Of a stretch of 38,773 bases of DNA, positions 11,263-33,913 are shown one piece after another. The stretch spans positions 186,001-224,773 of the forward strand of contig NW_027191488.1 in NCBI RefSeq assembly GCF_011745625.1, read 5' to 3'. Both the position numbers and the translations under genes were made by a program. Position 1 is the stretch's first letter, and every line of letters begins with the position of its first letter. The notes below the pieces were generated by a model that was not told the origin of the DNA, searched no databases, and worked only from the letters and a program-made list of their open reading frames with translations. This DNA comes from Cladosporium halotolerans. Taxonomy: Eukaryota.

Positions 11263-14200
11263 ATGCAGCGTGCCGGCGCTGCTTCCCGCCGCTTCTACTC
11301 CGCCTTTTACCAGTGGAGCGTGCGGCCTAGAAAGCCATGCGCCAGGCTCCATGACCAGAACGTACGCTTCGCCAGCGTAAAGATTAAAGGCGAGAGACAT
11401 GGTGCCAGGAATTTCGGCGCTCAACGTGAGCTTTTCAAGTTCGCTGAAATCGAACTCCCGAAGCACCAGTTCAAGCAACTCACAGACGACCAACCCGTGC
11501 TCCCCGTCGAGGAGTCTCCCACGGGCAGTCTCGATATCTGGACGAATGCATTGCGCAGCAGGTCGGGAGACGAGGTCAGGGTGGAGATCTGCGTGCCTGG
11601 CCCTTTCAGACGGGTGGCTCCCATGGTCAGGCCGTACAATTATGCCAAGGTAATCTATCCTCCGAGCAAAATCACGGACCCAAAGTACCCGGTTGTGCTT
11701 GTTGGTAAAATCGGTAAAGTCAGGAAGGCTTTGGAGGTTATCTACCAAAACGCGTTGGAAACCTGTGAACGAGCACGGGCGGCCGATCATTCACGTGAAG
11801 GGAGGAATTCGCACGAGTGGATAATCAACCGGTACGAAATACCGAAGGCTCTGATAGGGAGGCCGAGCGGCTTTACGCCCAGAGCACTGCGCAGGCTTCA
11901 GGAGAGGACTGGGCTGAAATCAATCCGGCTCCGGCCCATGGCAGGGGGCCGGGAGTTTCTTCAATTGGTTGGATTCAAAGTTGCGATCGATGCAGCGACG
12001 GGGGCGCTCGCGCAGTTCATCAAGGAAATTTGTTCTAGCCGTCACATCAGAAGGTGGGATCTTGAAGAGCTGAAGATGGATAATGATGCATACCAGCCCG
12101 AACCGCCATCGAGAGTCGTGGTAGCTGCTGCTCCGGGCGGTGCCGACGTGCCAACTTCTTTGCCCGACCCTGATGCTGCAATCCGTGAGATTCAGCTAGA
12201 AACCGACTGCCGTCTTACCGTGAATCCTGAAAAACGACTCGGCTTCAGAGTTCAGGGATCGGATGAATCGGTCGATTGGGCTATAGAACTGCTTCAAGAA
12301 AAGATCAAGCGGGCGTTTAATGTGGATCTTGACAAACAACACGAATACAATCTTGTCATAGAGGGAGACCATCGCGTCAAGCCCAGCAAGCAGGCGGGAA
12401 AGAGCGCTCAGCAATCCATTGAGCAGGAGATGGAGGAGGACATTGGGGAGCTTTCTGCTCAGGATGTTGAGCGGAGCGCCGAACGACCGATTGAGCAGGA
12501 GTTTGAAGAGAATGTTGAGGAGTTTGCTGGACTGGACACTAAACAGACCCCTGACCAAAGTTATAAGGATGCTCAACAGAGCGCTAAGGAGGACAAAACG
12601 GCTGAGAAGTCGACTGGTAATCCTGAATTGAGCGCCTCTGCCAATGAGTTCCGCACATCTCTTCGCTTCCTGTCGCAGCCTGTAATAGTGCTGACCGCCA
12701 AAGAGCGTCGCAGAAAGTTCAAACAGCTGGACGAGGAGCGCATTCACGGAGTCACCATCTCCTCTTTCACCACCATCACTCTAACCCCTAGACCAGTCGT
12801 CTCCTTTAACTTGCGCCTTCCATCGCGCACCTGGGACGCGATCGAATCCACGCGAGAGCTGCGCATGCACATGCTCCATAGCAGCCGAGCAGGAGCGACA
12901 GTAGCACACGCCTTCACACTCCCCTACGAGAACTCGTACGAGCCCTTTGGGCACTTGGCACAGCTCGGCGCTAACCCGCAGGCGATGCTCAAGTTCACTA
13001 CTCCTTACATCAAGTGGAAGCAAGCCGTCTTTGCCACATTCACTGCGAAGCCTTTGATGGATAAGTGCGTTGCCGTTGGCGACCACATGCTGATCGTGGC
13101 GGAAATTGACGACGGCAGCTTCGAGATGGATGACCCTGCCCGCGGCTCAGGCGCTTTAGCTTATGGCATGCGATCGTACAAGCGAATCGGGGGTGATCTC
13201 CACATTGTGCCGGGCGCTGAAGAATTGTTTGCAAGTGGAGGGGCTCAGTACAAGAAAGGTTTCATGAGGCTGTTGCAGGATAATCAGGGGAAGAAGAAAC
13301 CCGCCGACTGGGAAGGCGGTGGGAATGTTCAGACGAGGATGGCGAAGATGCAGGAGAAAGAAGAGGATGGGCCGGGGATCGCACGCGGCTTAACATCAAA
13401 GCAACCCATCTTTGACCCCAACAATGCCTTCGCCGAAGAAGCGGAGCCACAAACCATCGGCTCGGGTCACAAGACAGCAAAGGGGGATCTCGCCGCCGAA
13501 GCCCCACGAGGACGAAAGGCCTATCCGAGCACAGACACGCCCGACGACGACTTCATGGCCAAGCTCAACGAAGAGCCCGACCCGCACGGCACGACCTTCA
13601 GACCTCTCGACAATGCCCCTGCCTCACGTGCCTCCCATCCCCAACACGAGGGCGATTCCAAGTCCCCCGGCAGATCGAGCTACACGCTCAGATTCGGCCG
13701 CGGCGGATCATCAGCCCCCTCTTCCTCCTCAAGACACTACTCCACCTCCACCTCCCCACCCCCCGACCCCTCCCTCCCGTCCAACCTCCGCTCCATCTCC
13801 GTAAAAGACTACCTCGCCCCCCAGCCCCGCCACCCCTTCGGCTACCGCTCCCTGCTCGCCACCAAGCGCCGCGCCGACGACCTCCAAGCCATCCTCGACG
13901 CCGCCCCCGCCGCGGCGGAAGACGGGCCTTCGGCTCTCGAAGACCGCCCCGCGCTCGAGGCCGAGCAGGCCGCCGCCCGCCGCCTCGTGGCCCGCAAGCT
14001 GGCGGTGCGCAACGCCGTCGACTTGCGCGGCATGCTCGACGAGGGCCGCGTCGTCGCGCACCGCGTGCAGTGGCTCGAGCAGAATTTGGAGGAGGGCCTC
14101 GCGGCGCTGATCGAGGATGCGAAGGTGCTGAGGGGCGAGCTGGAGGCGGGGAGGGTCGCGAGGGAGAGGTTTGAGGAGGGGAAGAAGGAGGTTGTCAGGG

Positions 14201-14283
14201 ACCATGAGCTGCTGAGCACGCAGCTTATGCGGTTGAGGGATTTGGTCGAGGACGATGGGGGGTTTGGCGTTGGGGGGGAGTAA
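11263..14283 (+). CDS. Putative mitochondrial protein, ~1006 aa: three degenerate KH-like domains, a flavin-reductase-like (FMN-binding split barrel) domain and a C-terminal helical region
   Basis: Uninterrupted ORF. Likely start ATG 11263 gives an Arg/Ser/Ala-rich, acid-poor N-terminus (MQRAGAASRRFYSAF). Flavin-reductase signature FRTSLRFLSQPVIVLT...HGVTISSFTTITLTPRPVVSFNL...GDHMLIVAEI (~12646-13200). KH-like segments at ~11570-12310. Confidence 0.75.
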   Translation: MQRAGAASRRFYSAFYQWSVRPRKPCARLHDQNVRFASVKIKGERHGARNFGAQRELFKFAEIELPKHQFKQLTDDQPVLPVEESPTGSLDIWTNALRSRSGDEVRVEICVPGPFRRVAPMVRPYNYAKVIYPPSKITDPKYPVVLVGKIGKVRKALEVIYQNALETCERARAADHSREGRNSHEWIINRYEIPKALIGRPSGFTPRALRRLQERTGLKSIRLRPMAGGREFLQLVGFKVAIDAATGALAQFIKEICSSRHIRRWDLEELKMDNDAYQPEPPSRVVVAAAPGGADVPTSLPDPDAAIREIQLETDCRLTVNPEKRLGFRVQGSDESVDWAIELLQEKIKRAFNVDLDKQHEYNLVIEGDHRVKPSKQAGKSAQQSIEQEMEEDIGELSAQDVERSAERPIEQEFEENVEEFAGLDTKQTPDQSYKDAQQSAKEDKTAEKSTGNPELSASANEFRTSLRFLSQPVIVLTAKERRRKFKQLDEERIHGVTISSFTTITLTPRPVVSFNLRLPSRTWDAIESTRELRMHMLHSSRAGATVAHAFTLPYENSYEPFGHLAQLGANPQAMLKFTTPYIKWKQAVFATFTAKPLMDKCVAVGDHMLIVAEIDDGSFEMDDPARGSGALAYGMRSYKRIGGDLHIVPGAEELFASGGAQYKKGFMRLLQDNQGKKKPADWEGGGNVQTRMAKMQEKEEDGPGIARGLTSKQPIFDPNNAFAEEAEPQTIGSGHKTAKGDLAAEAPRGRKAYPSTDTPDDDFMAKLNEEPDPHGTTFRPLDNAPASRASHPQHEGDSKSPGRSSYTLRFGRGGSSAPSSSSRHYSTSTSPPPDPSLPSNLRSISVKDYLAPQPRHPFGYRSLLATKRRADDLQAILDAAPAAAEDGPSALEDRPALEAEQAAARRLVARKLAVRNAVDLRGMLDEGRVVAHRVQWLEQNLEEGLAALIEDAKVLRGELEAGRVARERFEEGKKEVVRDHELLSTQLMRLRDLVEDDGGFGVGGE

Positions 14284-14816
14284 GGGAGGTGAGGATGCGG
14301 GTGAGAGCGTTGTTCTGGGGGCTGTGGAGAGTTATTGCTGGCTTTATGATCGGGATGCCGGGGGTGCATCGGGCAGTAACTTGCTCCAAAATCTTGTAAG
14401 AGTAGTGTAGAAATATCCACATGACAGTGCAGCACAATGCTGTCACGGACACAATAGCAGAACGGCCAGCCAGCACCATCTACGTGCAAGCAGAGCAGAC
14501 GTTGTAGATACTCGATGGCCGCCCGCTCAGATTCTTGCAAGAGTGTGTATCGTGTGTAGAAGGTGCCGTCAGGGCGAACAGTGTGCGTTTGCGCTAAGCA
14601 CTATTTAGTAGTCCGCCATCGCACGCAAGTTAAACAGTATGATTACAAGAGCTCCTCCGACGCGAGATACACCAGTAGTGCTCAAAAATCAACATCAGAC
14701 CCTCACAGCACAGTACACCCCTATCAGACACCAGCACAAATCCACAGCAAAGACAAAAACGAATGAGCACACATATCCCACATTTAGCAGTGTTACATAC
14801 GAAGCATACACAGTCG

Positions 14817-14841
14817 CCAGTCCAGTCCAGTCCAGTCCAGT
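14817..14841 (+). repeat. (CCAGT)5 pentanucleotide microsatellite
   Basis: Direct read, in the non-coding interval between convergent genes. Confidence 0.9.
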
Positions 14842-15542
14842 CAGTCCTCCTCCCTTCCCATCCCAGCCATCCAGCCACGCACCGTCTAAATCACACACAC
14901 AACCACAAACCCCCTTCTAATCCTCTTTCACCCGCAGGCGACACACGTTCTCATGTCCAAGCAAGCAATCAAGCAAGTGCAAGAAGGTAAGAGAGAGAAA
15001 GGAACAAGACAAAACTCCCATCCCGAGCTTCTCGATGCCGGTTTCGGTGATTTCGCGCCCTCGCTGTGTTCGCATGCTCTTTCCTGTCCTCCTGGATCGC
15101 CTTGGTAGTAGTAGTAGGGGAAAATAGATAGATAGTGCCGGTAAGGTCGATAGTTCAACAAAAAGGAAAAAAAGCGAGGAGAAAGGTGAAAAAGCAAGGA
15201 AAATCGGTGGAGCCCCGCCGGCGCTCCCTGAGGAGCAGCGTGGTCGGGGCCTTTCGGTCTTTGGTGAAGAAGGAAAGAGATGAGGTGGGTTCTTCCTTTT
15301 TCGGTACAGTCGTCGATGAGTCGTCTCGTCTTTTTCGTTGCTTGGAGAGGCGCGAGGGTGACCTCTTTTGGGGGGGTTGGGGTGGTGAGATAGGTAGGTT
15401 TGATTTGGTTTTTCGTGGGGTGGGTTTCTTGTTCTGTATGTTTCTTCGCTGGTGACACCATCGCTCGTGTCCATTCTCTTCAATGAAAACGAAACCGCTG
15501 CGCTCTGTGAATGCTTGCGGCGAAAGGGAAAATGAAAGGCGT

Positions 15543-16553
15543 TTAAGAGGGGTTGGCGACCTGGCAAATGAGTTAGCAAGGTTGTGTTGTTGCGCGATGA
15601 GGAAGGCATCACTCACCCTCAATATTCTCCTCGAGTAGTCCTGATCGTCTGCGATACTTCCTGCAGAGTTTCGCCTGCCAGCTTCTGGGTCGAGGCGCTG
15701 GTCCGACATGTTGGAGTAGCCAGTGTTCGGAGGCTTGCCTTCACCAGAAGTACCGCCGTGACGCATGAAGTCGGAAACCTGGTTACGCTTGTATTCCTCC
15801 TCGGCGGCCTTTTGCTTGCGGTGACGCATGAAGAAGAACAAACCAATGGCGATACCAGCGACGGCCACAACGCCAACGACTACACCGGCAGCAATACCAG
15901 CGACGTTGGGTTTCGAGCCGCTGTCAGAGTCGGCTTCTGCAGAGGGCGAGGGGGCTTCGGTTTGTTGTTGGCTAGATGGCATGGTGACTACGACGGTGGT
16001 GCCAGGAGCAACGCTGGTCGAAACTGCAGCCTGAGCTGTGGATGAACTAGTGGGAGCTGGTGTTGTAGCGGAGCCTGAAGAACTGGAGCTCGACGCGACA
16101 TATGAATCGACATTGTTCTCAGTGCCACTGAGATACACGCCGAAGAAGTGGTGTCCACCGCCTGTAAGAATGTCAGAAAGACCGCAATATACACGTCACC
16201 ACGCCGTTTCGTCACTTACACATTTCCTTGTCGTATCCATCGCAGGGTGTGTCGCACTTGTCATCGCCAACCTTGTCGGACTCTGCCGGAAGCAGTTCAC
16301 CGCACAAGCAGTTGCTGCCCTCGGTCAGAGCCATAACAGGCTGGTTTTTGTCGACACATATTGGCTGGCAGTTGCCTGAGCTCTGGTAGATGTCCGACCC
16401 TTGGTCCTTCAGGGGAGTCGAGCTGGAGTAGCATCCGGCGTACTTCATCGTCCGAAGTCCAGCGGCAGAGGTTGATGATATGAGGGCTGCCGACAGCAGG
16501 AGAAGGGTGGAAGCAGCCCGTGACACGGGTCTGGTAGAGCGTGTTGATGGCAT
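15543..16553 (-). CDS. WSC1: WSC-domain cell-wall-integrity sensor (Wsc1/Slg1 type), ~298 aa; exons 16553-16220, 16161-15617, 15560-15543
   Basis: Signal peptide; Cys-rich WSC domain (YAGCYS...QSSGNCQPIC...CLCG...CDTPCDGYDKEMCGG); Ser/Thr stalk; TM helix (GIAAGVVVGVVAVAGIAIGLFFFM); cytoplasmic 'SIADDQDYSRRILR|VANPS*'. Two canonical introns of 58 and 56 nt. Confidence 0.9.
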
Positions 16554-16646
16554 TTCGGAGAGTAGCGCCGATTGACGCAAGGAGTGAAGAGGCTGGGTTG
16601 ATGGTGTGTGGCTCAGGGAGCGGCGACGCCGGGGTCAAGCGAGCGA

Positions 16647-16817
16647 CTGCAAGAGATGCCGGTCAGCAAGTGAACCGATGATGCTCGATGCGATATTGAC
16701 CGTCGTCCGGGCGGTGGAGGTGATGTTTTTTCGGTGGTTGCGGACCTTTCTTCGCGGGCTGCCAGCAGCGCGCGCGAGAGCGGGAAGGGTAAACAGCGGC
16801 GTCAGGTGATTGCCTAC
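16647..16817 (-). other. Probable 5'-UTR intron of WSC1
   Basis: Minus strand CAG|GTAGGC donor at 16817, GCTGAC branch at 16667-16662, then CGGCATCTCTTGCAG acceptor ending at 16647, ~93 nt upstream of the ATG. The acceptor is convincing; the donor choice is less certain. Confidence 0.5.
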
Positions 16818-19261
16818 CTGAGACCAGAGGCGTGGCGAAGCACTATGCCGCCTGTCCAGATACTGCGCGGGTCGATGTCGTGTGTTCCTGGCAGGATGCT
16901 CCGACTCCACAAAAACAGAGGTCCGTCGACAGCGTCAAAACGACAACCCTGTAGGCAGGCAGTTCGTCTCCGAGTATCCCACGTTGCAAGGACAACGACC
17001 TTCCCAGTGCCGTCACGTCACGCGCAGAGGCGGCTGAGGGCCGAAACAGGATCGCGGGTTCCCGAGGCGTCGGTTGGAATGCTCGTGTCGGGCGTTTCGG
17101 CGGCGGCGTGTCAGCGACCCCTTTACGGCGGAATTCGCAGGGGGAGCGGGCGTCGAGGGAGCGGCGGCGATGGGCGCAGGCGTCGTAGGTCGAGAGGGCA
17201 GTCGGGGTGGTTGTGGGTGTGGCGGGCGGGTTGAGCGAGCGTGAGGGTGGAAATGCAATGTAAGGACCGTGTGGGTGGTGAGGTGACGGGCGTGTGGGCT
17301 GGGTGTGGTGCGAGGGTGCGTGCGGGCGTGGTCGAGTGCGCGAGGGCGTCCTGAGGTGCTCGAGGGCCTGAGGGTGCGAGAGACGGGAGGCAGCGGGCGT
17401 GCCAGGGCGTGCGTGCGCCGGGCTTGGGAGCCCTTGCCCGTTCCTGCACTAGCGCCGTGCTAGCAGGGGCCGGCGGGCGCCAGCTCAACAGGCGTGTTTC
17501 AAATGCCATGCCGTGCCTGAGGGTGTAGGGAGTGTGCCTGATTATTAAGGTATTGTCAGGCAGAGCAATTCCGCCCACGCGCAGGCGACGCCTCTGCCCG
17601 CTCCCTACGCACGCGTGGCTGCACCTCGTCATGCACGCCGCCCACGCCAAAACGCCTCGCTACCGCGACTGTAATTACGCCTGTCGCGTCCCAAGGCTGC
17701 CCCAGCGATCTCCCTGCTACTCTACCACCGACAAGCCTTGTCTGCCCGCCCAGCCCGCCGGTGAAGGGCATCATCAGCGCAGCCACGGCAACGCTCGTTC
17801 CCTCCCATCCCATCCCACCCTTCCGCCCTCGCCGCCCAGGCACGGCAAATGCCTCGTCCCCAACGCCGAGCGCACTGCTGGACGCGCTCAGGCCGGCGCG
17901 CGGTGTGCTGCCCTTCCAACCCTGTCCATCCTCGCGCCGGCCGGTCGCCTGTCAGGAGGGAGTAGTCTGCGCTATGTCTGCCCAAAATATCTGCCTTCAT
18001 CTATCTCTCCCCGTGGAGGAAGTCGGAAGCGCGCACGACATTCGTGCTGCCTGAGTGGCGTGCAGCAATAGCAGTGTCGCCCAGCAACTCGTCTTCCCCG
18101 TGTTGAGGCTAAGTGTTGATGTAACGAGCTCTCACAAGCGAGATGCCCGCGCGCAGGCACCCAGCCCTGTCCACGCGTCTCCTCACGTTCTCGCCCGCCT
18201 GAGCAAAACCCAATCGACCGTGTGGGAAGCCTCCCTCCCAAAGCGGCTGCATCCATTTCTGCCGCCGCGCCAGAAATTTCTCCTCATCGCTCTTCCGGGC
18301 ATCTGCTTTCGGTAGTGCGCGCTGTAGGTCTCCTCACCCGCGACTGTCCGTAAAAGCAAGCACAGCCCAAACAGCCATCCGTCTTCCGGGAGATTACTAC
18401 CAATGGCTGGGCCGCCAGCATCCGGCGCGCCCCATGCCGCTGCGTGTCTCACGCGCGTATCTTCGCTGGCAGAGTCTGGACAAAATGGGCACGAATGCGT
18501 TCTCGAACGTCAAATCACTGCTCGGCTCGCGCCTGTCCAGCTCCACACGCCTTTATGATGATTGACGCTGCCCGTGCCGTGTCTTTTGTTTTTGCAAAGC
18601 CACAAACGGCTCGAACGGCACGCCACGATTTCGGCTCCCCGGTGGCTCACTAGTGTGGCCTCAGGAATCAGGACGCATTTTTCACCACTTCACCATTCCC
18701 ATCCTGCGGCCTCAGCTCCGGCTGCACGGCTATAACCAATTTACGTGAGTGAAGCCGCCGAGCCTATATCAGTACAGTCCTATAGCTACCGCCGCTCTCG
18801 CTAGATCGGAACTGCCAGCGCGCCCATGTGCGCGGTCTCGACAGGTCTTACGTTAATCCTGATCTGGTCGAGGCCTTGCTCTCGCCAAACTGTCACCGTT
18901 TCACAATCGCGAACGTGCTTCTGCTGCAGGTCATAGTAATTCGACAACTGGTCTCGTGAGGCTGTGGGACTGCTCTATCTTGCTCCATCGGCTTCCACAT
19001 GAGGGAAGCCGTCAATCTGGTAGCCGTTTCATTATTCATCGTCTAGAGGACAGCAGCATTGGACGCCTGGCTCTTGCGAAATATATTTCCCAGGGGCCTT
19101 ATCTGTCATGCATCTCCCTGTTGGGAGAGTGAATGCTGTGGACGGCTTGACCACCAAGCGTCTATTTGCAATGATGAAGCCGCAAGGCCAGCGACGCCTG
19201 TCGTCTTTCGCGAATGCCTACGATCGGTGTCGCGACTCGTAATCCAGGCTACACAGCTCCC

Positions 19262-21262
19262 TCAATCCTCCCCTTCATCCCTGGGCAAGTTTACGCCCAT
19301 GGCTCTCATCATATTCCCTGCAGGACCAGACATGCCCGCCTGGCCCTTGAAGGCTTCCAACATATTCTGCGCCAACCCCAGATCCACGTCGTTGTAATCT
19401 TCGTCGTCGGATGACAGCTCGCCGTCGCCGGGCCCGATCTCCTCGTCCGCTTCCTCTTCGAACTGCTTTGTGGTGGCGACCATACCAGGCGGTCTCTCGG
19501 GTCCGAAAAACGTGGGCTTCTTGCCAGCTGCTTTACTGTAAGGTTTATCAGGCTCACCACTTGCTTTCGACTTCTTCTGCTTTTCATTGTTGAGGTTCAG
19601 CGCGCCGTGCCCTTTCAGCTCTTTCTCCATGAGCTCCATGACTTTGCGCGTCTCTTCGTCTTCGTCCATGTCGTCCCGCCCGTCGCCTTCTTTCTCATCT
19701 TCGAGCGCGAGCCTCCGGGCTTCTTCTAGCAGACCAGATTTCTCTATGTCGGCCGCCGGCATTCCCATCATCTCCTTCATCGCGCGTTCAAACTCCGCTT
19801 CATCAAACGACCCGTCCTTGTCCTCGCCGGAAGAGCTGACAGACGAATCGTCGTCCTCGTCCTCGTCATCAACATCATCATCCTCCCCGACACCCTCCAA
19901 CCCAGCCTCATCATCCCCCTCCGCAAACTCCTCAAACCGCCTAACCATTCTCCTCAGATTCTCCTGCGCCCCGACATCCCCAAACCCCCCTGCCTTCCCA
20001 CCCCTCTTCCCACCCTTCCCCTTCTTCCCAGCCAACTCCTCTTCAAAATCCCCATAATCCACATCCAACCACTCCTCCCCATCCTCCCTCATCCCCCACC
20101 CCTCCACCTCCCCGTCCCCCGGCAAACCCTCCTCCCCGCTCTCCACGTCCCCAACCAACACCCCCACCTCCCTCACCACCCGCCTGTCCCCAAACGCCCC
20201 CTCGTCCGCAAGCATCATCTCAAACCCGCACGCCAGCTTCATCCCCATGCTCCACTTCTCGTTCTCCATCCCCTTCCCTCCCAGCCCAGCCCAAGCAGGC
20301 GGCGCAGCAAACACCTGCCCCCGCAGCTGCGCGAACCCCACTCGCGGCACTTTCACGCTCGTCCGCACGAAGTCTTCCGGCGGGAAGCGCAGCGCCCTCG
20401 CATCTCTGGCCATCAGCGGCCGCAGCGACACGGGATCCCGCAGGTAGAACGCTTCGATGGCCGGCGCGATCGCCGCGGGGAGGCGTTGCAGGACCAGGGC
20501 CAGTTTGCGCGGCAGCGGCAGGATTGTGTGGTGGAATGTGGAGGCGATGGAGGCGGGGTAGGCGCGCGTGCGCGCGAAGGCTTCGTCTTCGATGTAGGGG
20601 GATATTGTCAGGGTGGAGGGGGCGGTGAGGATTGTGGTTAGGGCGGTGGGGAGGGTGAGGTTTGTTGCTTGGTGGGGTTTGGTGTTGGGGGAGGTGGCAG
20701 AGGGGGGGATGATTCGCAGGTGCCCGTTGTTGAGCCAGACGCGGTTGTCGGCTACGTCGGGGTTGAGCCATTTTGGTAGGGCGGACGCCGCTTCGATGAG
20801 CAGGAATTCGCCGTCGGAGTCGTGCACGCGCATCCAGGCGGTGGGGAAGTGCGTGCTGAGGGTGAGGAGGAAGTGGACGATGAGCCATTCGTCGGCTATC
20901 GAGTCGCCGAAGTTGGTGCGGCCGAGGAGGTGGAGGGGTGTGTTGGTGTTGTTGTCTGGGAGAGCTTTTTGGTCGGAGGAGTTGGATGTGGTGGTGGTGG
21001 CGGCATTTTGTTTTGTGATGTCCGGGTTGATCTTGAGGGCGAATTCGTCTCGTTGCCAGATGTAGTCTTTGAAGAGTTTCTTGCCGGCCTCGTTTGCGAA
21101 TTTTAGTATTTCGTTCAGTTTCGCGAGAAGTTGAGCGGTTGTTTTGATCTCTTCATCGACGACGTAGATGGCATATTCAACGCAGTCTTCTGGTAGTCTT
21201 TTCGGGAAGCCTTCGAAGCCTTCGCCAAACCATTTAAATCCATCGTCTTGGGAAGGTTCCAT
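19262..21262 (-). CDS. Ecdysoneless/hSGT1 (ECD) family protein, 666 aa, single exon
   Basis: 'YIWQRDEF', 'GRTNFGDSIADEWLIV', 'DSDGEFLLIEAA..LPKWLNP..ADNRVW', 'APAIEAFYLRDP', 'GMKLACGFEM', and C-terminal 'DLGLAQNMLEAFKGQAGMSGPAGNMM..MGVNLP'. This is not the Hsp90 co-chaperone Sgt1. Confidence 0.88.
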   Translation of the reverse strand: MEPSQDDGFKWFGEGFEGFPKRLPEDCVEYAIYVVDEEIKTTAQLLAKLNEILKFANEAGKKLFKDYIWQRDEFALKINPDITKQNAATTTTSNSSDQKALPDNNTNTPLHLLGRTNFGDSIADEWLIVHFLLTLSTHFPTAWMRVHDSDGEFLLIEAASALPKWLNPDVADNRVWLNNGHLRIIPPSATSPNTKPHQATNLTLPTALTTILTAPSTLTISPYIEDEAFARTRAYPASIASTFHHTILPLPRKLALVLQRLPAAIAPAIEAFYLRDPVSLRPLMARDARALRFPPEDFVRTSVKVPRVGFAQLRGQVFAAPPAWAGLGGKGMENEKWSMGMKLACGFEMMLADEGAFGDRRVVREVGVLVGDVESGEEGLPGDGEVEGWGMREDGEEWLDVDYGDFEEELAGKKGKGGKRGGKAGGFGDVGAQENLRRMVRRFEEFAEGDDEAGLEGVGEDDDVDDEDEDDDSSVSSSGEDKDGSFDEAEFERAMKEMMGMPAADIEKSGLLEEARRLALEDEKEGDGRDDMDEDEETRKVMELMEKELKGHGALNLNNEKQKKSKASGEPDKPYSKAAGKKPTFFGPERPPGMVATTKQFEEEADEEIGPGDGELSSDDEDYNDVDLGLAQNMLEAFKGQAGMSGPAGNMMRAMGVNLPRDEGED

Positions 21263-21657
21263 TTCAGAGGTAGGTGCGCCGTGTTAGGCCTGCAAAACCA
21301 CCTTGGTATTTTCTGCAATAATCAAGAAGACGTATCCATGGACTTTCGCACCACGGTTCATCCCTCAGATTGCACTGATCCAGGAACAATATTTCTCTTC
21401 ATCGTGGCAAGTCGCCTGCAGTTCGCAAGCACGGAGGTCTTTCCGCTGTAGCTGCAGGCGGCGGGCTCAGCCGGCGCTAAAACGCCTTTGTTTACTATTC
21501 CGAGGCGGCTACCAAAACACGAAGCTTGAGACGAACAACGAGGACTGAACGCCCAAACGACTCTGCGCATTCCTACACTTGCGCATGCCATGCGCCCAAG
21601 ACTAACACTACATTGAAAATCGCCCAAGCTCGGTCCCAAAAAAAGAACACCGCAAAA

Positions 21658-24600: not shown

Positions 24601-26042
24601 CGCCTGACGATGAGATCAACCATCGCTGACCTCGAAGCTGACCTGGAGGCTGCCCTCCGAGCCAAGTCGAACGGCTCGCCAGTTCAGGAACGCAATGAAC
24701 TTCGCAACAAAGTCCGCTTTATGGAATCCGAGCACCAAAAGCTCAAATCTACGATCTCAGACCTCAAGGCAGACCTCGAAGACGCACAACGCTCATCCCG
24801 CTCCGAGACTCCCCTCCGCGAGCGCAACGAGCTCAAGAACAAACTCAGAGACTCCGAATCCAAAATCTCCCGCCTGCAGGACAAAGTCGACTCCCTGCAA
24901 TCCGACCTCATCACCGCTCAGCAAGACCGCACCATCGCCGAAGAGCGCGGCAACTACCACGGCGTGCTCACAAAGGCCCAAATCGACCACGAGGACCTGC
25001 AAACCCGCCTCGCCGACAAAGACCGCAAGCTCTCCGCCGCCTGCCGCCGCGAGGGCGAGCTCCGCGGCCAGCTCGACGCCGCCCGCCTCGAGCTCGACGA
25101 CGCTCGCGCCCAGGTCGCCGAGCAGGAGAGCAGATTGCGCGACCTCGCGGGCCGCGAGAGGGACTTCCGCGCCCAGCTGAAGGGTTTCAAGGACGCGCGC
25201 ATCCGCCTCGAGGACGCGGAGGCGCAGCTCGGCGAGCGCGCGGGCTCGTCGTCCGACCACATGCGGCGCGAGGCGGAGCTGAGGAAGTCTTTGCGCGAGG
25301 CGAGGATCGCTCTCGATGCTGCGCAGGCGGACGCGAGCGAGAAGGACGACGCGCTGCAGTTGCTGGCGCGCAAGGAGAAGGATCTCCGCGCCCGCCTGAT
25401 GAAGTCTCGCGCGGAGGACACGGTCCAGCTGGATTTCCAGACGCAGCTGGCGGATGCGGAGGCGGAGCTCGAGGCGTTGCAGCACAGGCTGAGGGAGCGC
25501 GAGAGGGCGCTGCAGCATGCGCAGAGGAGGGAGGGGGAGCTCAAGGCGCGCGTGAGGGGGTTGCAGAGTGGGGTGGAGGGGGACGATGGTGGCGAGGCGA
25601 GGGAGAAGAGGCATGAGGGCGAGCTGCGCGGGCTTGCGAAGCAGATCTCGTTCTTGCGCGCGCGGTGCGAGCGTGAGGAGGGGTTTCGGAAGGGGTTGGT
25701 TTGGACGAAGAGGTGGTTCCTCATGCAGGTTGAGATGTACAATCAATGGTGAGAAGCGACCCTATCCTGCTGACTGACTTGGAGATCGATTTACTGACGA
25801 GATGATTTCACAGCAACGCCGCCGACCTCCGTCTTCTGGAGGAGATCGGCATCACGCCCGACGCGACGGTGCGCGAGAGGAGGCCTACGCTGCGGTCGGT
25901 GGGTTTCGCGGTGATCGCTTCGATTCGCATGCGGAAGATGCAGGAGGCTTGGGCGGGCAACAAGAGGGTGCAGGAGGCGCTTGTAAGGAAGTTTGAGGGG
26001 ATGAAGAGGGCGAGGGGTGGGAGGAGTATTAGTGGGAAGTAG
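21658..26042 (+). CDS. PCP1: Pericentrin-like spindle pole body protein Pcp1/PcpA/Spc110 (SPM + CM1 + coiled coil + PACT), ~1439 aa; exons 21658-25748 and 25814-26042
   Basis: 'QEFTPLLKS' SPM-like motif; CM1 'MTLRDQEAKLDQIQKDNFGLKLKIHYLE'; long heptad coiled coil; PACT region 'REEGFRKGLVWTKRWF...YNQC|NAADLRLLEEIG...RPTLRSVGFAVIASIRMRKMQEAW' restored by a 65-nt GTGAGA...ACTGAC...CAG intron. Confidence 0.88.
24541..24936 (+). repeat. Three 132-nt (44-aa) tandem repeats within the PCP1 coiled coil
   Basis: Units start at 24541, 24673 and 24805: GTPVRERNELRLKL / GSPVQERNELRNKV / ETPLRERNELKNKL. Confidence 0.8.
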
Positions 26043-26796
26043 GGATGTGATGGAAAGCTTTTAACGAATGAATGATCGATTGATTGGTCGATGGGTAGCG
26101 GTGGTGTTGCTGGAGTTTGGGTTGAGGCGTTCTTTGAGGGTTTCTTGGGGACAAGTCTTTTCGTATTGATACAGGTCCTGCGCTCCATGATCAAGTCGGC
26201 GGACGACTGTTCTTAACACTTGTACAGTGCTATGCGACGTGTGCTCCCCACGTTATTTTAATCATTGCAGGTTGTGTCTTTCTTGCCGAGTCGAGAAAGT
26301 AGATCTACATATTGATTGCTGGCATTGAAGCCTCAGGGTCTCTATTACATATTTGGAAGGGTCCGTTGGTCGGCTGAATTATCGCACACCATCTACCACA
26401 AGATGGACATGGTTGACACGGAAATTGCTCTGTCCACAACGCCCATCCAAGACATCCGCAGCTTCCGACCCGCGGAGACAACGATGCTCGGTTGTTTGCT
26501 GGATGCGATGATCTGTTCTTTTCGTTCGTCAAAGCCGCATATCGCAATCATCAGCAAGCCCGAATATCGACCAACGAATGGCCGTGAGGGCGACAAGGGC
26601 TGGCCGACTAGCAGGCGTGGATTTGATGAGTATTGCCCCTATCTCGGGAGATTTTGGTTGACAGGCGGTTCGCTCTCGACTAGCGGCTTCCAGAAATACA
26701 GCGGCAGAGCGGGCGGCGCCCGTTTCTGCAGGACCCCTGTCGATTTTGGACCCTTGGCCGGGCGAGTCGCGTGCGGGTTTGGGCTGCGCGGGCTGC

Positions 26797-27394: not shown

Positions 27395-27420
<26 letters not shown>
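27395..27420 (+). repeat. (CT)13 microsatellite in the VTS1 leader region
   Basis: Direct read. Confidence 0.95.
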
Positions 27421-27425
<5 letters not shown>

Positions 27426-27634: not shown

Positions 27635-29606
27635 ATGTCTGCCAGCAACATAATCGGCAACCGGAACAGCACCCCCGAGGCGTCCAGCTCCACCCTCCGT
27701 CCTCCCAGCTCTCGCACCCTGGGCGCCGGCCACCACCTCCGCGCTTCCGCCGACATGGGCGCTTTCACCGCGCAGCCTCCCTTGTCCGCTCGCGGCATCC
27801 GCCCGGCTTCTGAGATCTACCTCAACCAGTTCCAGCAGCAAGGTGCCAACTCCGGCAACCCAGACGATGCCGCCGAAAAGGTGGCCCAGCAGTGGATGTC
27901 GGACATTGAGCAGTACGAGACGACCTTGGAGGACATGGCTTCGGCCACGCTCGACCAGGACTTCAAGGACGAGCTCAGCGCCATTGAGCAGTGGTTCCGC
28001 GTGCTCAGTGAGCCCGAGAGGACCGCCGCCCTGTACGCCCTGCTTCAGCAGACCACCCAGGTGCAGATCCGCTTCTTCATCCAGGTGCTGCAGCAGATGG
28101 CCAAGAGCCACCCCATGTCAGGTGTCCTCTCTCCCGCCGCTTTCGGCGAGAAGGACCCTATGTCTTCACGCATGAACGATGCCATGAACAAACTGAACGT
28201 CGAGGGCTCGCGCGGCTCCTTTGGCTTCGGCACAAAGCCGCCGCCTTCGCCGGGTGCGAAGCGCATGTCTGGGCTCGACCCCAGCACTATCAAGTCTATG
28301 TTCCCCGACGCCGCCAACGCGATTGAGGACCAGAAGGCTGAGTTCCAGAAAACCACCGGCACCGCGCCGAAGTCAAACCGCAACAGCGCCGTCGGTGACA
28401 GGTCCTCTTTCCTTGGTCCCTCCATCTCGGCTCCGGAGGAGGAGTCGCAGCAGCAAAAGAAGAATGTGTCGTCTGGTATTCCGGCTGGTCCGTGGAGGAA
28501 TGCCGGCTCGAACGGTAATAATGAAAACCAGCCCCCTATCGGGAGGCCCAAGTCTTCGTCCAGCCAGCAGGCACCCATGGGACAGTTCGGTTTGAGCAAC
28601 CCTCCTGCTACCGCTGGCCTGCGCTCGCCGCGTCCTTTCCCGATTTCTGGCGACAGCAACATCCAGAGCCAGTCGGCCACTGTTTCGGAATCTCAGAACC
28701 AGCCGATGGGTCACGGCATTCTTTCTCCGTACGCGCCTGGCGCCAGCTGGGCTTCCATGTCCAACACGCCCATGGTTTCCAACTTCAACCACTCGCAGCA
28801 AAACCAGAACCACGCTGATATGGTCGCCAACGCGACCGCTATGAAGCTCGCCGCCATGTCTACGGTCAACAACCGTATTCAGCTCGACGACGTTCGCAAG
28901 TACCGCCGTGCGCGCTCTAACGAGGGACAGCAACAGCAACAGCAGCAGGGCCCACTCTCTCCTGGTCTTCCCACCGGCATTAACCTCACCAATGAGTATG
29001 GCCAGATGCTCACTCCTCAGCAAGCGCTCGCCTTCCAGCAACAGCAGCTCGCTGCCATGCAAGGCGCCCGTTCTCGCCCCAGCTCTCCCGGTATTGCAAT
29101 CACTGGACCCCACGGCGCGACTGCCAATGTGCCTATTGGAAACGGCATGCAAAACAATGGCTTCCTCGCGGCCTTCGACGGCTCGAACGGTCTCGGAGGT
29201 CTCAACAGCGGCTTCGCCGGCATGAACCTGAACACCTTCCCCATGGGCGGCGAGGGCTACCTTTCGGACGCCTCAGAAATCAACCGCGGTCGCTCGCCTA
29301 GAGGCAGACGTGGTAGCTCCAAGCCGCCTGAGGACCCGACCGACCCTGCCCTGCTCAAGGATATTCCCAACTGGCTGCGTACACTGAGGCTGCACAAGTA
29401 CACCGATAACCTCAAGGACATGCAGTGGCAGGATCTTGTGGCTTTGGATGATGAGGGGCTTGAGAAGAAGGGTGTGAATGCTCTTGGTGCCAGGAGGAAG
29501 CTGCTCAAGGTATGTCGTATTGTGCCCGTTTTCGACTAATAGGATGCTAACAATCTGCCAGGTGTTCGAGCAAGTCCGCGAAGCGCAGGCCGAGGGCAAG
29601 ATCTAA
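27635..29606 (+). CDS. VTS1: RNA-binding SAM-domain protein Vts1 (Smaug homolog), ~639 aa; exons 27635-29509 and 29562-29606
   Basis: N-terminal '[36 protein letters not shown]'; Q/S/N-rich middle; C-terminal SAM '[18 protein letters not shown]...[18 protein letters not shown]'. 52-nt GTATGT...GCTAAC...CAG intron. Confidence 0.92.
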
Positions 29607-30322
29607 TTTGTGCGATCTTTTTCCATGAGCGCCCCAGTCACTACCACGATTGAGTCAAAATTCCGCAATCCGAGCTCTTTTTTGCATTGCGGGCACGCGG
29701 CGTCGTTCGAGCGTCATCTGCGAAGAGCGCTTTTCTGTTTGCTAGTTGTCAATTTGTTTCATGCCATCATCTCTCATGAGAGAGGAAAAGGGGGAGACGA
29801 ACGAGAGGGAAAAGGGATCTTAATAATGCTTACACGTATCTTCTTTTCTCTCTGCCATTCTCTGTTCAGTCGTGTTGCTCTTACGTTCGTGATAACCTGT
29901 TGACAAGCGAGCGTAGGCCCTTCGATCAGTGACTGGTCGCCCCGCGCATACAATCTGACAATGCTCATACAATGGACGCTGCTCACTTCCTCTCCGCGCC
30001 TGACCGCGCCTGACCGCGCCGTAACGCCGAACCTGGAACCCAGCCACCAACATTTTCTGGCCGCACTCCCCGACAATCTTATTGTTCACCACCCTTTGAC
30101 TCCCATTGTCCATTGAATCTATTTCTTTCACCATGGCGCTCTTTAGCGAGCTTCGAGGCGTGTTGCTTTGTTTCACTAATCCTTTTCTACACACTCATCT
30201 CCCTTCCACGAATCTCAGTCCTTTGGCGAAAACATATCCAACAAATCGCTTGACGCGATTACCCACGCATTGAACTTGCCATCTAACAGCTCTTAAACAC
30301 TTTTGACGCAGACTTCAACGCT

Positions 30323-31420
30323 ATGAACAAGCTCTTCAACACAGGCGTCCTGGCTCTTGCCACTCTCGCCTCTATTTCCTCCGCCCACGAAGGCCACAAC
30401 GAGAACAAGCCCTCGAGTTCCTACAGCCTAGTCGCTGACTACAGCGGCCCAACCTTCTTCGACGGCTTCGTCACCTTCACCGGCCCCGACCCCACGCACG
30501 GTAAGGTCAACTACACCGACAAGGCCTTCGCCGCCAGCACCGGCCTCCTCGGCTTCAACTACCACCAGGAAGACAACTCTACCCGCGCCCGCATCGGCGT
30601 CGACTCCACCGACAAGGCCCCCGGCAACGCCGGCCGCAACTCCGTCCGCCTCACCAGCAAGGCCACTTTCAACGCCGGCACCCTCCTCGTCGCAGACATC
30701 ACCCACATGCCCGTCGGCCCCGGCCTCTGGCCCGCCCTCTGGCTCCTCGGCACTGGCGCTGAATGGCCCGCCGCCGGCGAAATCGACATCCTCGAGACCG
30801 TCCACGACACCCCTTACAACGCCATGACCCTGCACACCGCCCCCGGCTGCAGCGTCGCCAACTCCTCCGCCTCAGCCCCCTTCGCCGGCCACCTCCAGAA
30901 CCCAGACTGCAACGCCGGCTCCGCCATGACAGGCTGCAGCATCCACGCTCCCGCCACCTTCCAGAGCGACGGCAAGAACCTGGCTTCCGCAGGCGAAGCC
31001 TTCAACGCCCAGGCCGGCGCCGTCTACGCCACGGAATGGACGCCGCACGGCATCAAAGTCTGGGCTTTCGCCCGCTCCGCCGTCCCCGCTTCTCTCAACT
31101 CTCCCAACCCGGATCCGAACTCTTTCCCCCCGCCGCTGGCTTCTTTCTCTGGCCCCGGGTGCGATTACGCCGAGTCTTTCAGGGACATGGCGCTCATTGT
31201 CAATACGGATTTCTGCGGCGATTGGGCGGGCAGGGTTTGGGAGAAGATGGGTAAGGATAAGGGGACGGGTGTCAAGAGCTGCGAGGAGTTTGTTGGGGAG
31301 AGGCCTGGGGAGTTTAAGGATGCGTTTTGGGAGTTTTATAGTATTCGCGTTTTTGGGTTGGGGGGGAAGGATGTTGGGAAGAACCCGGATGTCGGGCGGG
31401 AGGGATTTGGGGTTCTTTGA
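30323..31420 (+). CDS. Secreted glycoside hydrolase family 16 (fungal Lam16A-like endo-1,3(4)-beta-glucanase), 365 aa
   Basis: Signal peptide; 'DPTHGKVNY', 'GRNSVRLTS', 'HMPVGPGLWPALW', catalytic 'WPAAGEIDILE', 'NAMTLHT', 'NTDFCGDWAG'. Confidence 0.92.
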   Translation: MNKLFNTGVLALATLASISSAHEGHNENKPSSSYSLVADYSGPTFFDGFVTFTGPDPTHGKVNYTDKAFAASTGLLGFNYHQEDNSTRARIGVDSTDKAPGNAGRNSVRLTSKATFNAGTLLVADITHMPVGPGLWPALWLLGTGAEWPAAGEIDILETVHDTPYNAMTLHTAPGCSVANSSASAPFAGHLQNPDCNAGSAMTGCSIHAPATFQSDGKNLASAGEAFNAQAGAVYATEWTPHGIKVWAFARSAVPASLNSPNPDPNSFPPPLASFSGPGCDYAESFRDMALIVNTDFCGDWAGRVWEKMGKDKGTGVKSCEEFVGERPGEFKDAFWEFYSIRVFGLGGKDVGKNPDVGREGFGVL

Positions 31421-31689
31421 TCGTTTAATAAGTATCTTTGGATCGGTCTGATGGAATGGATTGATCCTGAAGCAATTTGAGAGTTTTTGTTTTTGTTTTT
31501 TGGCCGCGATTTGTACTTTCCACTTCATCTTGAGGGCTTTTGTTGTCTTGTTTTCTTGCTTTCTCCTTGGTGGTTTTCTGTGACTTGAATGGGGGTTTGG
31601 GTAAGGGCTCAGCTGGAAGAGGACGCAGGTTGCTGGGATGTCAGTTTGACGACTACCTGGTAGCTAATGGATCGATCTACTAACCAGTC

Positions 31690-31780
31690 GATCAATCAGT
31701 CATTCAACTAATCAATAAATCGGTAAATCAACCAACCAACTAACCAACCAACCAACCAACCAATCAATTAATCAATCAAT
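31690..31780 (+). repeat. Degenerate (CAAC/CAAT)n tetranucleotide tract
   Basis: ...tcaaccaaccaactaaccaaccaaccaaccaaccaatcaattaatcaatcaat, between the convergent GH16 and DAACS genes. Confidence 0.85.
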
Positions 31781-32230
31781 GTTTTTAGATTCTCGCTTTG
31801 CTCTTTATTCGGATTCGCTGTCAATAGCAATGTTGATGGGGAAGTCGCCATTACGCACATGTTATAGTACCTGATGAAAGCTCACTCCAAGAAGCATACC
31901 GCCCGTCGCCATAGTGAACAAGTATAACTCGTACATACGATATAGTCTGTGGAGCATTCAAAGGGACTCTGTCTTGAACATCATTCTCCACTCTGTACAG
32001 TGGTGAATTCGACGAGGAAATAGCGCTGTGAGGGCTTCGTGATAATCCCACTCGTCATCGCGGTGTGTAGAAATATCTTGGAGATCCTCTCAACCTCAAG
32101 TCACCGGTCATGCATGCTGGGGAAGAAAGGATTGCACGAACGAGTCGATTTCAAAAAAGTATCATTAACCACATCATCAAAGCCCTCCTTACCCAACGCA
32201 CCTTCAACCTCCCTCCTCCCTCGCCACTCA

Positions 32231-33913
32231 TCAAACAGTCTCCTTCGCGTCGCCGTTCACACTAGCCCTGCGCTGCTGCTGCACCCCACCCGCCTCCTGC
32301 ATAACCCTCTGCACGCTCTCCGACGCCTCGAAATCCCTCGAATCCGTATCCGTGATCCCCGTCAATTTCGCCATCACCCGCGAAGCGTACAGGTCGCCGC
32401 TGACGTTGGTCATCGTCCGGAAGCGGTCGATGAACCAATCGATCGCCACCACGACCGCGTACATGCCCGTGATCGGGATGCCGACGCTCTCGGCGATGAT
32501 CAGCGTCAGGACCAGCGAGGAGCTGGGGATCGGCGTCGTGGCGATCGAGGAGAGGGTCGCGAGCAGCACGATCACGACGTAGTCGCCGGCGTTCAGCGAC
32601 ATTCCTTGAGTGGCTGCGAGGAAGACGACGACGGTCGGGAAGTAGATCGCCGTGCCGTCCATGTTGATCAGCGTGCCGAGCGGGATGACGAATTGCGAGA
32701 CGACGTGCGGAATTCCGCGCTCCGAGGCCACTTGGAGGGTCACGGGCATGGTGGCGGCGGAGGAGGCGGTGGCCCAGGCGGTGATCCAGGAGCGCGAGCA
32801 GCGGATCCAGAAGGCGTAGGGGTTTTGGCGCACGAAGGCGAAGAAGAGGATTGGGTAGACGATGAAGAGGTGAACTTGGGGAGAAAGTTAGTGTTTGATA
32901 AGGGATGGCGAGTTTCTGGGGACGGGATGCAAGACTTACTGGCCATGTTGACGATGGAGCCGCCGACGAGCACGCCAAGGTTCTGTCCGATGTCTTCAAT
33001 GTCGAGGGTGAAAAGGTTGGACAGGATGAGGAAGAAGACGCCAATGGGTGCGAGCTTGATGAGGAAGGTGATGATTGTCATGACAATCTTCTCGACTTCT
33101 CGGACGGCGCGCAGAATCGAGGAGTCGGGACCTTTGATAAGACAGCCGACGACGATGGCTGAGACCAAGACCGCGAGGAGCTCGTCGTTAGCCACGGCGC
33201 CGACGACGTTGTTGGGGATGAAAGATTCGAAGACCTGGACCACAACGTCGTGTGCTGCCATACCGCCTTTCTCTTCGACGTCTGCGGCGTCTTCCTCGCT
33301 CATTTGAAGCGAGTCGGGGTCGGCGACGGTCATCATGGGTCGCCACACGAGGTCGACCAGGATGGTACTGATGACGATGGCAAGGATGGTTGTCCCCACA
33401 TACCAGATAATTGTGAGACGAGCGAGCTTTCCTCCGCCAGCATCCATACTCTTGAGGTTTTGGACGGCGATGATCATGGCGACAATGATCAAGGGAAGGA
33501 CTGTGATGGAAGTCGTCAGACGTGGCTGACACGGGCTACCAAGACGACATCGTCAAAGACTCACCAGTTGCTCTGAGAGCTCTCAGCCAAAGCTGACCCG
33601 GAATCTCAAGAATAACAGGCGCCGCCTCTGGCATGTTCGACACAGAGGTCGAGACGGCCAGACCAATGGCGATGGCAATCAGCGCTGCGACAATGATCTG
33701 CACTGCAGACCCGGGAGTCTTGAACGAGTCCCATAGCTGTTGGTACCAGTTTCGTTTGACTGGTGTGGTCTCTCCATCTGCGACGTAAGAGGGCTCGCTG
33801 GAAGCCTCGCGAGAGAGCCCCGCGCTGTTGGTGACATTCACAGGTCCCTTGGTGTCGGACTCGACGGTGCCGGTAGGTTCCTTTGGATCCGAGGTGATCT
33901 GTTCGACGGCCAT
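32231..33913 (-). CDS. Dicarboxylate/amino acid:cation symporter (DAACS/SLC1, EAAT/GltPh-like), ~517 aa; exons 33913-33565, 33500-32940, 32874-32231
   Basis: 'PGQLWLRALRAT|VLPLII', 'FIPNNV', 'IKLAPIGVFFLI', HP1 'TASSAATMP', TM7 'INMDGTAIY', TM8 'DWFIDRFRTMTNVSGD'. Introns of 64 nt (GTGAGT..CAG) and 65 nt (GTAAGT..ACTAAC..AAG) keep the frame. Confidence 0.9.

Follow-up and report, generated by a model that had tools for sequence, protein, structure and literature searches.

A 38,773-nucleotide stretch of Cladosporium halotolerans (contig NW_027191488.1, positions 186,001 to 224,773 of the forward strand; hereafter the window, numbered from its first letter) raises the question of why its + strand should pass repeatedly, and mostly inside coding sequence, from an extreme excess of C over G to an extreme excess of G over C. 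A sequence-only reading had taken the point at which each C-rich arm gives way to a G-rich arm, the hinge, for a fixed initiation site of a strand-asymmetric mutation or repair process, such as a replication origin or a recombination hotspot. The analysis presented here suggests instead, at a probability of about 0.6, that these domains are the strongest local cases of gene-polar GC skew, a strand asymmetry anchored at gene ends. In most respects they match the skew described in fungi by McLean and Tirosh in 2011 (PMC3315797). The earlier interpretation proves right in part. All statistics on the organism derive from this one window, which at 38.8 kb contributes 14 genes with approximate ends.

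GC skew inverts eight times along the window

GC skew was scanned in sliding windows of 300 bases, with crossing positions and 10-90% spans taken from logistic fits, and a step statistic D was computed as the GC skew of the right 400 bases minus that of the left 400, using 200 mononucleotide shuffles as a control. Eight C-rich to G-rich inversions were identified on the + strand between 10.2 and 33.1 kb, with upward crossings at 10781, 14035, 15102, 20379, 22029, 25263, 31187 and 32475. The five domains and the weaker sixth that had been described beforehand were all recovered where they had been placed. The skew rises from -0.78 (19950-20249) to +0.48 (20550-20849), from -0.44 to +0.54 across 13650-14399, from -0.32 to +0.45 across 24750-26249, from -0.37 to +0.60 across 30450-31499 and from -0.38 to +0.35 across 32100-33149, and the weaker domain at 21.45-22.8 kb is also present. 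The largest step reaches D = +1.07, against a maximum |D| of 0.46 in the shuffles. Most strong crossings fall in or beside a G+C peak of 0.69-0.74, the exception being 31187 (0.58). The description of the hinges as CG-rich did not hold, given that their CpG observed/expected ratio (0.87-1.48) brackets that of the whole window (1.01, with GpC at 1.10) and that no 8-mer is common to more than three of the eight hinges. CpG depletion was not seen in the window, a finding that speaks against heavy methylation of cytosine or repeat-induced point mutation there.

Between the inversions the skew returns from G to C through downward jumps at 10239, 17566, 21209, 26954, 29938 and 31656, all intergenic or at a start codon, at 14523 in a convergent intergenic region, and at 13567 inside a flavin-reductase-domain gene. 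These are as sharp as the upward jumps (10-90% spans of 4-1278 bp versus 4-622 bp). Replication origins at the hinges would account for the direction of the upward jumps, since enrichment of G and T on the strand running 5'-to-3' away from such a jump is the classical signature of an origin. However, eight upward jumps lie within 22 kb, their arms extend for 0.4-1.2 kb, far below replicon scale, before equally sharp downward jumps reverse them, the hinges track coding sequences, and no common motif was found among them. Origins are consequently a very improbable explanation for the domains.

Skew inversions track gene ends and are strongest at four-fold degenerate sites

The 14 usable gene models were obtained from Pfam scans of long open reading frames (ORFs) and from spliced contigs of a public sequencing run of unrecorded kind (X2). 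The X2 contigs show clean GT..AG or CT..AC joints at six introns within 13300-33200, indicating that the run is RNA-derived, and they confirm the strands of the WSC, centrosomin-like, VTS1 and sodium:dicarboxylate symporter (SDF) genes. X2 cover is little or none over parts of the strongest domains, and no inference was drawn from this. The models comprise a DEAH helicase, a Kelch protein, Med11, TAF5, a bL31-type ribosomal protein, a 1006-residue flavin-reductase-domain protein, a WSC-domain protein, SGT1/ecdysoneless, a centrosomin/pericentrin-like protein with Cnn_1N and PACT domains (Cnn), VTS1, an ORF at 30323-31420 matching no Pfam family, the symporter, a pectate lyase and a mitochondrial carrier. 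The 5' ends of the WSC, SDF and mitochondrial carrier models are exon or ORF limits, and their start codons are thus approximate.

Sense-strand skew is negative in the first 300 coding bases of 13 of the 14 genes and positive in the last 300 of 12, the exceptions being WSC (-0.40) and the pectate lyase (-0.01). A generic 5'-to-3' gradient of this kind is the pattern that the sequence-only reading had itself set against its interpretation. The claim that the skew continues into non-coding flanks was borne out: the 250 bases after the stop codon are positive in 11/14 genes, the two negative cases having a convergent gene adjoining 78 bp away, and the 300 bases upstream are negative in 10/14 (VTS1, -0.52; ORF 30323, -0.39). 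Seven of the eight upward jumps lie inside coding sequence. Six of the eight are at most about 300 bp from a stop codon, and the other two precede one by 0.8-1.1 kb. Of the eight downward jumps, seven are intergenic, in convergent, divergent and tandem contexts alike. With jumps that track genes and upward jumps no sharper than downward ones, the proposal that the hinges are initiation points loses its footing. A gene-polar pattern is its own reverse complement and hence has the same + strand appearance for either gene orientation, and the self-complementarity noted earlier stands as a property of composition but not of sequence, since long inverted repeats were not found.

Counts at four-fold degenerate sites were obtained per gene in 80-codon bins on the sense strand. 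Pooled over genes, they amount to C479 G140 T51 A51 on the 5' side of the crossings and to C85 G254 T62 A9 on the 3' side, compared with C700 G357 T455 A239 in six other genes, and single bins are as extreme as C47/G0 and C0/G29, spanning four-fold skews of -1.00 to +1.00. The G phases are nearly devoid of A at these sites (9/410) and low in C. The shift in A and T reported by the sequence-only reading was also recovered, with four-fold AT skew falling from 0.00 on the 5' side to -0.75 on the 3' side. The skew is strongest at four-fold sites and runs into untranslated flanks, and what produces it, as had been proposed, is a substitution bias that differs between the strands and affects all sites, rather than selection at the protein level. 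The bias reaches unusual strength in this species, where it goes together with islands whose four-fold G+C is about 85% (0.83-0.86 in the domains, versus 0.60 in the six other genes and 0.52-0.71 in relatives).

DHR2, TAF5 and VTS1, which had been described as free of the pattern, follow it to varying degrees. Four-fold skew moves from -0.50/-0.30 to +0.57 in the last 80 codons of DHR2 and from -0.78 to +0.05 in VTS1, while TAF5 is C-preferring throughout at four-fold sites and its raw skew alone rises at the 3' end. A single rise per gene holds for most genes; the centrosomin-like gene goes through two cycles and the flavin-reductase gene through at least two. Crossings are also off-centre between adjacent downward jumps, lying nearer the 3' end in most genes and nearer the 5' end in SGT1, and this asymmetry points to a role for the direction of transcription.

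Skew overrides conserved residues in SGT1

Domain 2 (19850-21050) lies within the SGT1/ecdysoneless gene, a single ORF of 666 residues on the - strand (19262..21262; Pfam PF07093, E 3.7e-84), and crosses at 20379, around codon 295. Successive 80-codon bins give four-fold counts of C33/G6, C38/G5, C11/G39, C0/G29 and C5/G18. Among named relatives the SGT1 protein is closest to Cladosporium (66% identity), followed by rock-inhabiting and plant-pathogenic dothideomycetes, and judged by these relatives the organism would be a dothideomycete. For a broader comparison, a set of 80 metagenome loci encoding SGT1 (handles beginning with L) was assembled. The rise in skew from deciles 2-4 to deciles 5-7 of the gene is about 1.1 in the window, versus -0.11 to +0.47 in the 49 of these loci with near full-length matches, which include some duplicates.

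For the window protein the amino-acid G-C index amounts to -0.294 (C arm) and +0.680 (G arm), whereas 18 of 19 orthologues range from -0.118 to +0.025 and from +0.153 to +0.325, respectively; in the rest of the protein the index is unchanged (+0.272). Substitutions were polarised against 13 relatives, leaving out two near-duplicates (L010, L016) and one partial sequence (L012). The relatives used for polarisation share 64-76% protein identity, and at that distance information comes from conserved sites alone, in small counts. Changes at first and second codon positions common to two groups of relatives number 32/236 in the C arm and 39/228 in the G arm, compared with 17/382 elsewhere in the gene. 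The 39 changes in the G arm include 14 A>G, 9 C>G and 3 T>G, and the 32 in the C arm include 11 A>C and 5 T>C. On the G-rich strand of the G arm, A or C was the starting base in 30 of the 39 changes (103 such sites) and G or T in the other 9 (125 sites). The bias was thus strong enough to replace conserved SGT1 residues. SGT1 is 62-64% identical to its counterparts in L001-L007, and the neighbouring centrosomin-like protein 74-77% where fully covered, a greater divergence of SGT1 that is in line with skew-driven replacement.

Conserved protein composition, with a stretch rich in Pro, Ser and Thr followed by one rich in Gly, Glu and Val, could in combination with codon preference generate a similar profile, and SGT1 orthologues do share a mild baseline gradient (index of about -0.03 and then +0.26; raw skew of about -0.3 rising to about +0.3). 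The skew is nonetheless carried by four-fold sites and untranslated flanks, and the window SGT1 is an outlier in both arms against 18/19 orthologues. Composition is ruled out as a full explanation, as had been argued beforehand, and the chance that it is the cause of the domains is slight. The further claim that the skew overrides amino-acid choice is shown for SGT1, where conserved residues are replaced, and suggested for the centrosomin-like protein, but it does not extend to the C-terminus of the flavin-reductase protein. There 17 homologues span -0.31 to +0.11 and +0.13 to +0.55, and the window's index (-0.15/+0.47) is within both ranges, which agrees with a compositional origin at that site.

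The Zymoseptoria tritici SGT1 orthologue (P0107) shows a similar amino-acid shift at the same place, with index values of -0.312/+0.397 and a Pro/Ser/Thr-rich stretch followed by Trp/Gly/Arg replacements, which suggests an independent case in a species with published recombination maps. Downstream of the SGT1 stop, the 1.7 kb that separates it from the upstream region of the WSC gene (17570-19260) is C-rich on the + strand throughout, as is the corresponding flank in the relative L003, and no conserved ORF was found in it. An X2 contig spans 18632-19968, implying either a 3' untranslated region of at least 630 nt for SGT1 or another transcript overlapping the gene.

Several skew cycles within the centrosomin-like and flavin-reductase genes

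The centrosomin/pericentrin-like gene, identified by Pfam (Cnn_1N, PACT) and X2, occupies 21658-25752 on the + strand, with a further exon at 25813-26039 and an intron at 25748-25812 confirmed by a GT..AG joint in X2. Its 5' part holds the weaker domain (21450..22800, crossing at 22029), where four-fold counts change from C34/G9 to C11/G31 and C8/G26. The second cycle occupies its 3' part (domain 3, 24500..26150, crossing at 25263), with successive bins of C31/G4 and C35/G8, then C11/G22, C8/G21 and C8/G21. Third positions in this second cycle changed by five G>C and no C>G in the C arm, and by five C>G and two G>C in the G arm, and amino-acid changes run in the expected direction.

The flavin-reductase-domain gene (11263-14283, + strand, 1006 residues) ends within domain 1 (13400..14400), which crosses at 14035, 250 bp before the stop codon at 14283, and whose G-rich arm continues past it. 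Four-fold counts change there from C44/G4 to C4/G13, with G+C at 0.74 at the crossing. In a full HMMER search, homologues of 950-1600 residues were found to include the reductase domain as well as the C-terminal part, so that the ORF represents one gene; word-based homologue searches returned the query alone among proteins of near length and nothing among shorter ones, and were judged uninformative given the HMMER homologues.

The internal G phases of SGT1 and of the centrosomin-like gene lie 0.6-3.5 kb from any 3' end, and this bears on the proposal that transcript or DNA structure is under selection, be it through avoidance of C toward 3' ends, G-rich pause or R-loop termination elements, fold-back mRNA or G-quadruplexes. 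In most genes the G phase is anchored to the 3' end and its flank, as such selection would have it; any base may change to G and C is lost, with no single mutational class being followed; and the SGT1 flip recurs at a similar place in several lineages. Distance from 3' ends in the two long genes stands against this proposal, and the loss of conserved residues would be a cost for it to outweigh. The earlier suggestion of selection for fold-back mRNA or G-quadruplexes gained no support from folding energies or motif counts. Minimum free energy z-scores were -0.02 for the SGT1 domain and -1.94 and -2.00 for two others, with no clear difference in these three domains from 25 shuffles within 50-base blocks that keep composition, and pairing across the hinge follows from composition alone. 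A search for inverted repeats returned no long ones, only short 70-93% matches in low-complexity CCTCC/GGAGG runs. Ten canonical G-quadruplex motifs were counted in ten arms, exceeding shuffles in two arms and unenriched in the other eight. Structural selection hence seems improbable as the source of the domains.

Gene-polar skew in other fungi, and differences from close strains

Skew inversions of this type are not restricted to the window. In 683 kb of other fungal loci, 42 upward and 35 downward jumps with |D| > 0.6 were detected, corresponding to 0.06 upward jumps per kb, while the window contains six in 38.8 kb. L024, a marine metagenome scaffold from a distant fungus, presents one C-to-G cycle in each of the five ORFs checked, with crossings in the 3' half of the ORF or at the stop. 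The SGT1 four-fold flip was also found, similarly placed, in another four distant lineages (L045, L048, L052 and L072), reaching C40/G4 followed by C0/G19 in L045. Inversions as strong as those of the window, with D up to 1.17, were also observed in L024, L045 and L048, and likewise in L033 and L041, all five being only distantly related to the window by SGT1 identity (38-41%). In 46 of the 80 loci, down to 34% SGT1 identity, SGT1 and the centrosomin-like gene are likewise divergent, head to head, and the jump at the 3' end of the WSC gene recurs at the orthologous place in L003.

A strain differing from the window by 2.6% (X4) provides 514 differences over 19.9 kb. As regards an excess of AT-to-GC fixation, the differences from two close strains (X4 and X5) are balanced overall (220 versus 203). 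C<->G is normally the rarest class of change. Among the X4 differences, 65 of the 514 are C<->G transversions and 26 are A<->T, an unusual excess that fits ongoing swapping of G and C.

Source of the strand asymmetry

Under gene-end-anchored asymmetry, the coding strand would be rich in C, and in A, from the upstream flank through most of the gene, and then rich in G, and in T, to the stop codon and the 3' flank. The hinge would simply be the meeting point of two opposite asymmetries anchored near gene ends, with nothing starting there. On the G-rich strand, A, C and T would have been replaced by G, and C and A would have become fewer, as might be expected if that strand were repeatedly single-stranded and its damaged bases bypassed. 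Exposure could arise during transcription, in bubbles or R-loops near 3' ends, or during break repair in intergenic nucleosome-free regions.

Several observations weigh against this interpretation. Its mechanistic part is conjectural, transcription and break repair being both compatible with the data. Both long genes depart from a single cycle: two or more run through the flavin-reductase gene, in which the downward jump at 13567 lies, and the centrosomin-like gene completes two full cycles at four-fold sites (-0.80, +0.41, +0.33, -0.19, -0.30, -0.70, +0.36). The skew attains its extremes no further than 200-400 bp from the hinges, and six of the eight crossings are sharp (10-90% span of at most 285 bp), both of which also fit a source at the hinge. 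AT skew is flat along genes in the available text of PMC3315797, whereas it falls from 0.00 to -0.75 here. Finally, the closest relatives are C-preferring through SGT1 at aligned four-fold sites (-0.40, -0.28, -0.26, -0.22 and -0.23), although single bins lean to G (e.g. C2/G16 at codons 321-400 of L003), and four close relatives pooled over codons aligned to the 3' domain of the centrosomin-like gene are C-preferring as well (-0.43, -0.42). Four-fold G+C at the aligned sites of the two genes is 0.52-0.71 in relatives, compared with 0.76-1.00 in the window domains. It follows that the strong G phases are lineage-specific and come with GC islands, and shifting hotspots predict the same.

Such hotspots, centred on the hinges, were the explanation preferred by the sequence-only reading. 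Breaks would recur at the G+C-rich hinge, and correction of mismatches in strand-defined heteroduplex (e.g. G/T to G/C) would drive T>C on one side and A>G on the other, with a rise in G+C and an inverted skew as the result. In accordance with this scheme, four-fold G+C peaks at or near the crossings, the arms have about the length of resection and conversion tracts in yeast, the centrosomin-like gene and SGT1 have G phases that are lineage-specific, conserved SGT1 positions change 3-4 times as often in the arms as in other parts of the gene, the A/T shift has the predicted sign, and one long gene contains two cycles. Hotspots within exons have a precedent in Zymoseptoria tritici (1435 of 2578; PMC5844332), but GC-biased conversion is weak in that species, as far as the available text of the same study goes. 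The scheme also has to contend with seven of eight hinges lying in coding sequence, most of them near stops, with upward jumps no sharper than downward ones, and with the flip of the same gene, SGT1, at a similar place in several unrelated lineages. Transversions between G and C, which GC-biased conversion does not favour, are prominent (9 of the 39 SGT1 G-arm changes are C>G; five G>C and five C>G in the centrosomin-like gene), and the mutational asymmetry reported beside human breaks, in the accessible part of PMC7615360, has the opposite polarity. Hotspots at the hinges are therefore rather unlikely.

Breaks could instead concentrate in intergenic nucleosome-free regions and at a few sites inside long genes, with 3' tails exposed by resection drifting to G, so that the + strand would become C-rich at the left end of a gene and G-rich at its right end, with the highest G+C where the zones overlap. 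This arrangement agrees in polarity with the flanks of human hotspots (PMC7615360, available text), places breaks where seven of the eight downward jumps lie, and requires no role for gene orientation. It is likewise consistent with the excess of changes from A or C on the G-rich strand of the SGT1 G arm (30/39) and with G phases in which four-fold sites are nearly free of A (9/410) and low in C. The off-centre position of crossings between downward jumps would nevertheless demand uneven breaks, and additional break sites would be needed inside genes, near 13.57, 19.8, 22.9 and 24.4 kb. Moreover, changes in the SGT1 C arm are mainly A>C in sense, i.e. T>G on the G-rich strand, which is outside the human C>N/A>N signature in the available account. 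Breaks of this kind are unlikely, if attractive as a possible account of the whole gene-polar pattern. Were they the cause, fungal gene-polar skew would be a footprint of recombination and resection, not an effect of transcription, the bare sequence of strongly affected species would map break sites, and the process would have the strength to alter conserved protein residues.

For the preferred reading, in which asymmetries anchored at gene ends meet at the hinge, the near-complete switch from C to G at four-fold sites within genes offers an unusually high signal for tests of mechanism, in a system where relatives 2.6% apart have been sequenced and one gene has had conserved residues overwritten. 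The lower identity of SGT1 than of its neighbouring gene is also a warning that part of this species' protein divergence may be non-adaptive.

Other skewed loci in the window

Domain 4 (29800..31550) crosses at 31187, 230 bp before the stop of the ORF at 30323-31420 (+ strand, no Pfam family). Its C-rich part starts about 500 bp upstream of the ATG and covers most of the ORF, and its G-rich part continues into the 3' flank (upstream 300 bases, -0.39; downstream 250 bases, +0.32). Four-fold counts are C47/G0 in codons 81-160 and C2/G11 in codons 321-366. The ORF encodes a Glu-Ile-Asp-Ile-Leu-Glu stretch that is presumably typical of family-16 glycoside hydrolases.

Domain 5 (32000..33100) crosses at 32475, 240 bp inside the 3' end of the sodium:dicarboxylate symporter gene on the - strand (exons 32234-32874 and 32940-33552 or beyond), which was recognised by PF00375 matches in both - strand ORFs and whose intron (32875-32939) is confirmed by a CT..AC joint at 32874/32940 in X2. 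Four-fold counts in sense are C32/G12, C24/G24 and C4/G18. The ORF at 32114-33307 on the + strand, with G+C at first codon positions of up to 0.98, was rejected as spurious, the real gene being the symporter on the opposite strand.

Of the two remaining inversions, one (10200..11000, crossing at 10781) takes the skew from -0.34 to +0.31 with a 10-90% span of about 36 bp, near the 3' end of a bL31-type mitochondrial ribosomal protein gene (10647-11036, - strand). The other (14560..15600) crosses at 15102, 56 bp past the stop (15158) of the WSC-domain gene, so that the C-rich side of the jump is the 3' flank of this - strand gene. Introns of the WSC gene at 15559-15614 and 16161-16218 are confirmed by X2 spliced contigs, and alternative X2 joints were observed in its upstream part at 16646/16746 and 16646/16818 (CT..AC). 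Upstream of WSC, a G+C-rich (0.66-0.71), ORF-free region (16300..18900) contains the downward jump at 17566, a sharp G-to-C transition with a span of about 4 bp around an AT-rich core (17000-18000).

Comparison with known systems

Upward GC-skew jumps are a feature of bacterial replication origins, and mammalian CpG-island promoters are GC-skewed and form R-loops. The hinges resemble both in combining an upward jump with a G+C-rich centre. Their scale is wrong for origins, however, and unlike promoters they lie in coding sequence and not at start sites. The coding strand of fungi is, in addition, C-rich near gene starts, the reverse of the mammalian CpG-island case.

Strand-asymmetric mutagenesis has been reported beside human meiotic breaks, with C>N and A>N changes on the single-stranded strand (Hinch et al., Science 2023; PMC7615360). 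According to the available text, that asymmetry and the domains described here are both kilobase-scale mirror images around a point, and the G-rich strand of the window loses C and A. The human asymmetry, however, implies G-rich sequence to the left of a break and C-rich sequence to its right, a polarity opposite to that of the hinges and matched by the downward jumps, and the human data concern de novo mutations, as against an accumulated skew of large size in the window. In plants and fungi, a C-rich strand bias around transcription start sites was described by Fujimori et al. (BMC Genomics 2005; PMC555766, available text), and the coding-strand C excess near window gene starts, as in the upstream flanks of VTS1 and ORF 30323, is similar. 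That description concerns the start-site region, whereas the G-rich 3' phase and the inversions are features of the window.

In the mostly open-access literature searched, no account was found of such domains in dothideomycetes nor of a link between fungal gene-polar skew and recombination. A search by title phrase returned little that followed up the 2011 description, and the cause of the 5'-C to 3'-G skew of fungi has been open since. As given in the available text of McLean and Tirosh (PMC3315797), the fungal coding strand is C-biased at its 5' end and G-biased at its 3' end, with three skew regimes per gene (5', middle and 3'). The skew is seen at four-fold sites, reaches promoters and 3' untranslated regions and shifts amino-acid use, and an adaptive idea, avoidance of C toward 3' ends, is put forward. 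The window shares with this pattern the 5' C bias, the 3' G bias, and their presence at four-fold sites and in both flanks. Set against the same text, the window differs in an amplitude that is far larger and coupled to islands of about 0.85 four-fold G+C, in two long genes with two or more cycles, and in coming from a dothideomycete, whereas the survey covered unicellular fungi. What is new beyond the published pattern is hence the amplitude, the link to GC islands and the multiple cycles in two long genes, together with the AT-skew shift and the lineage specificity of the strong G phases.

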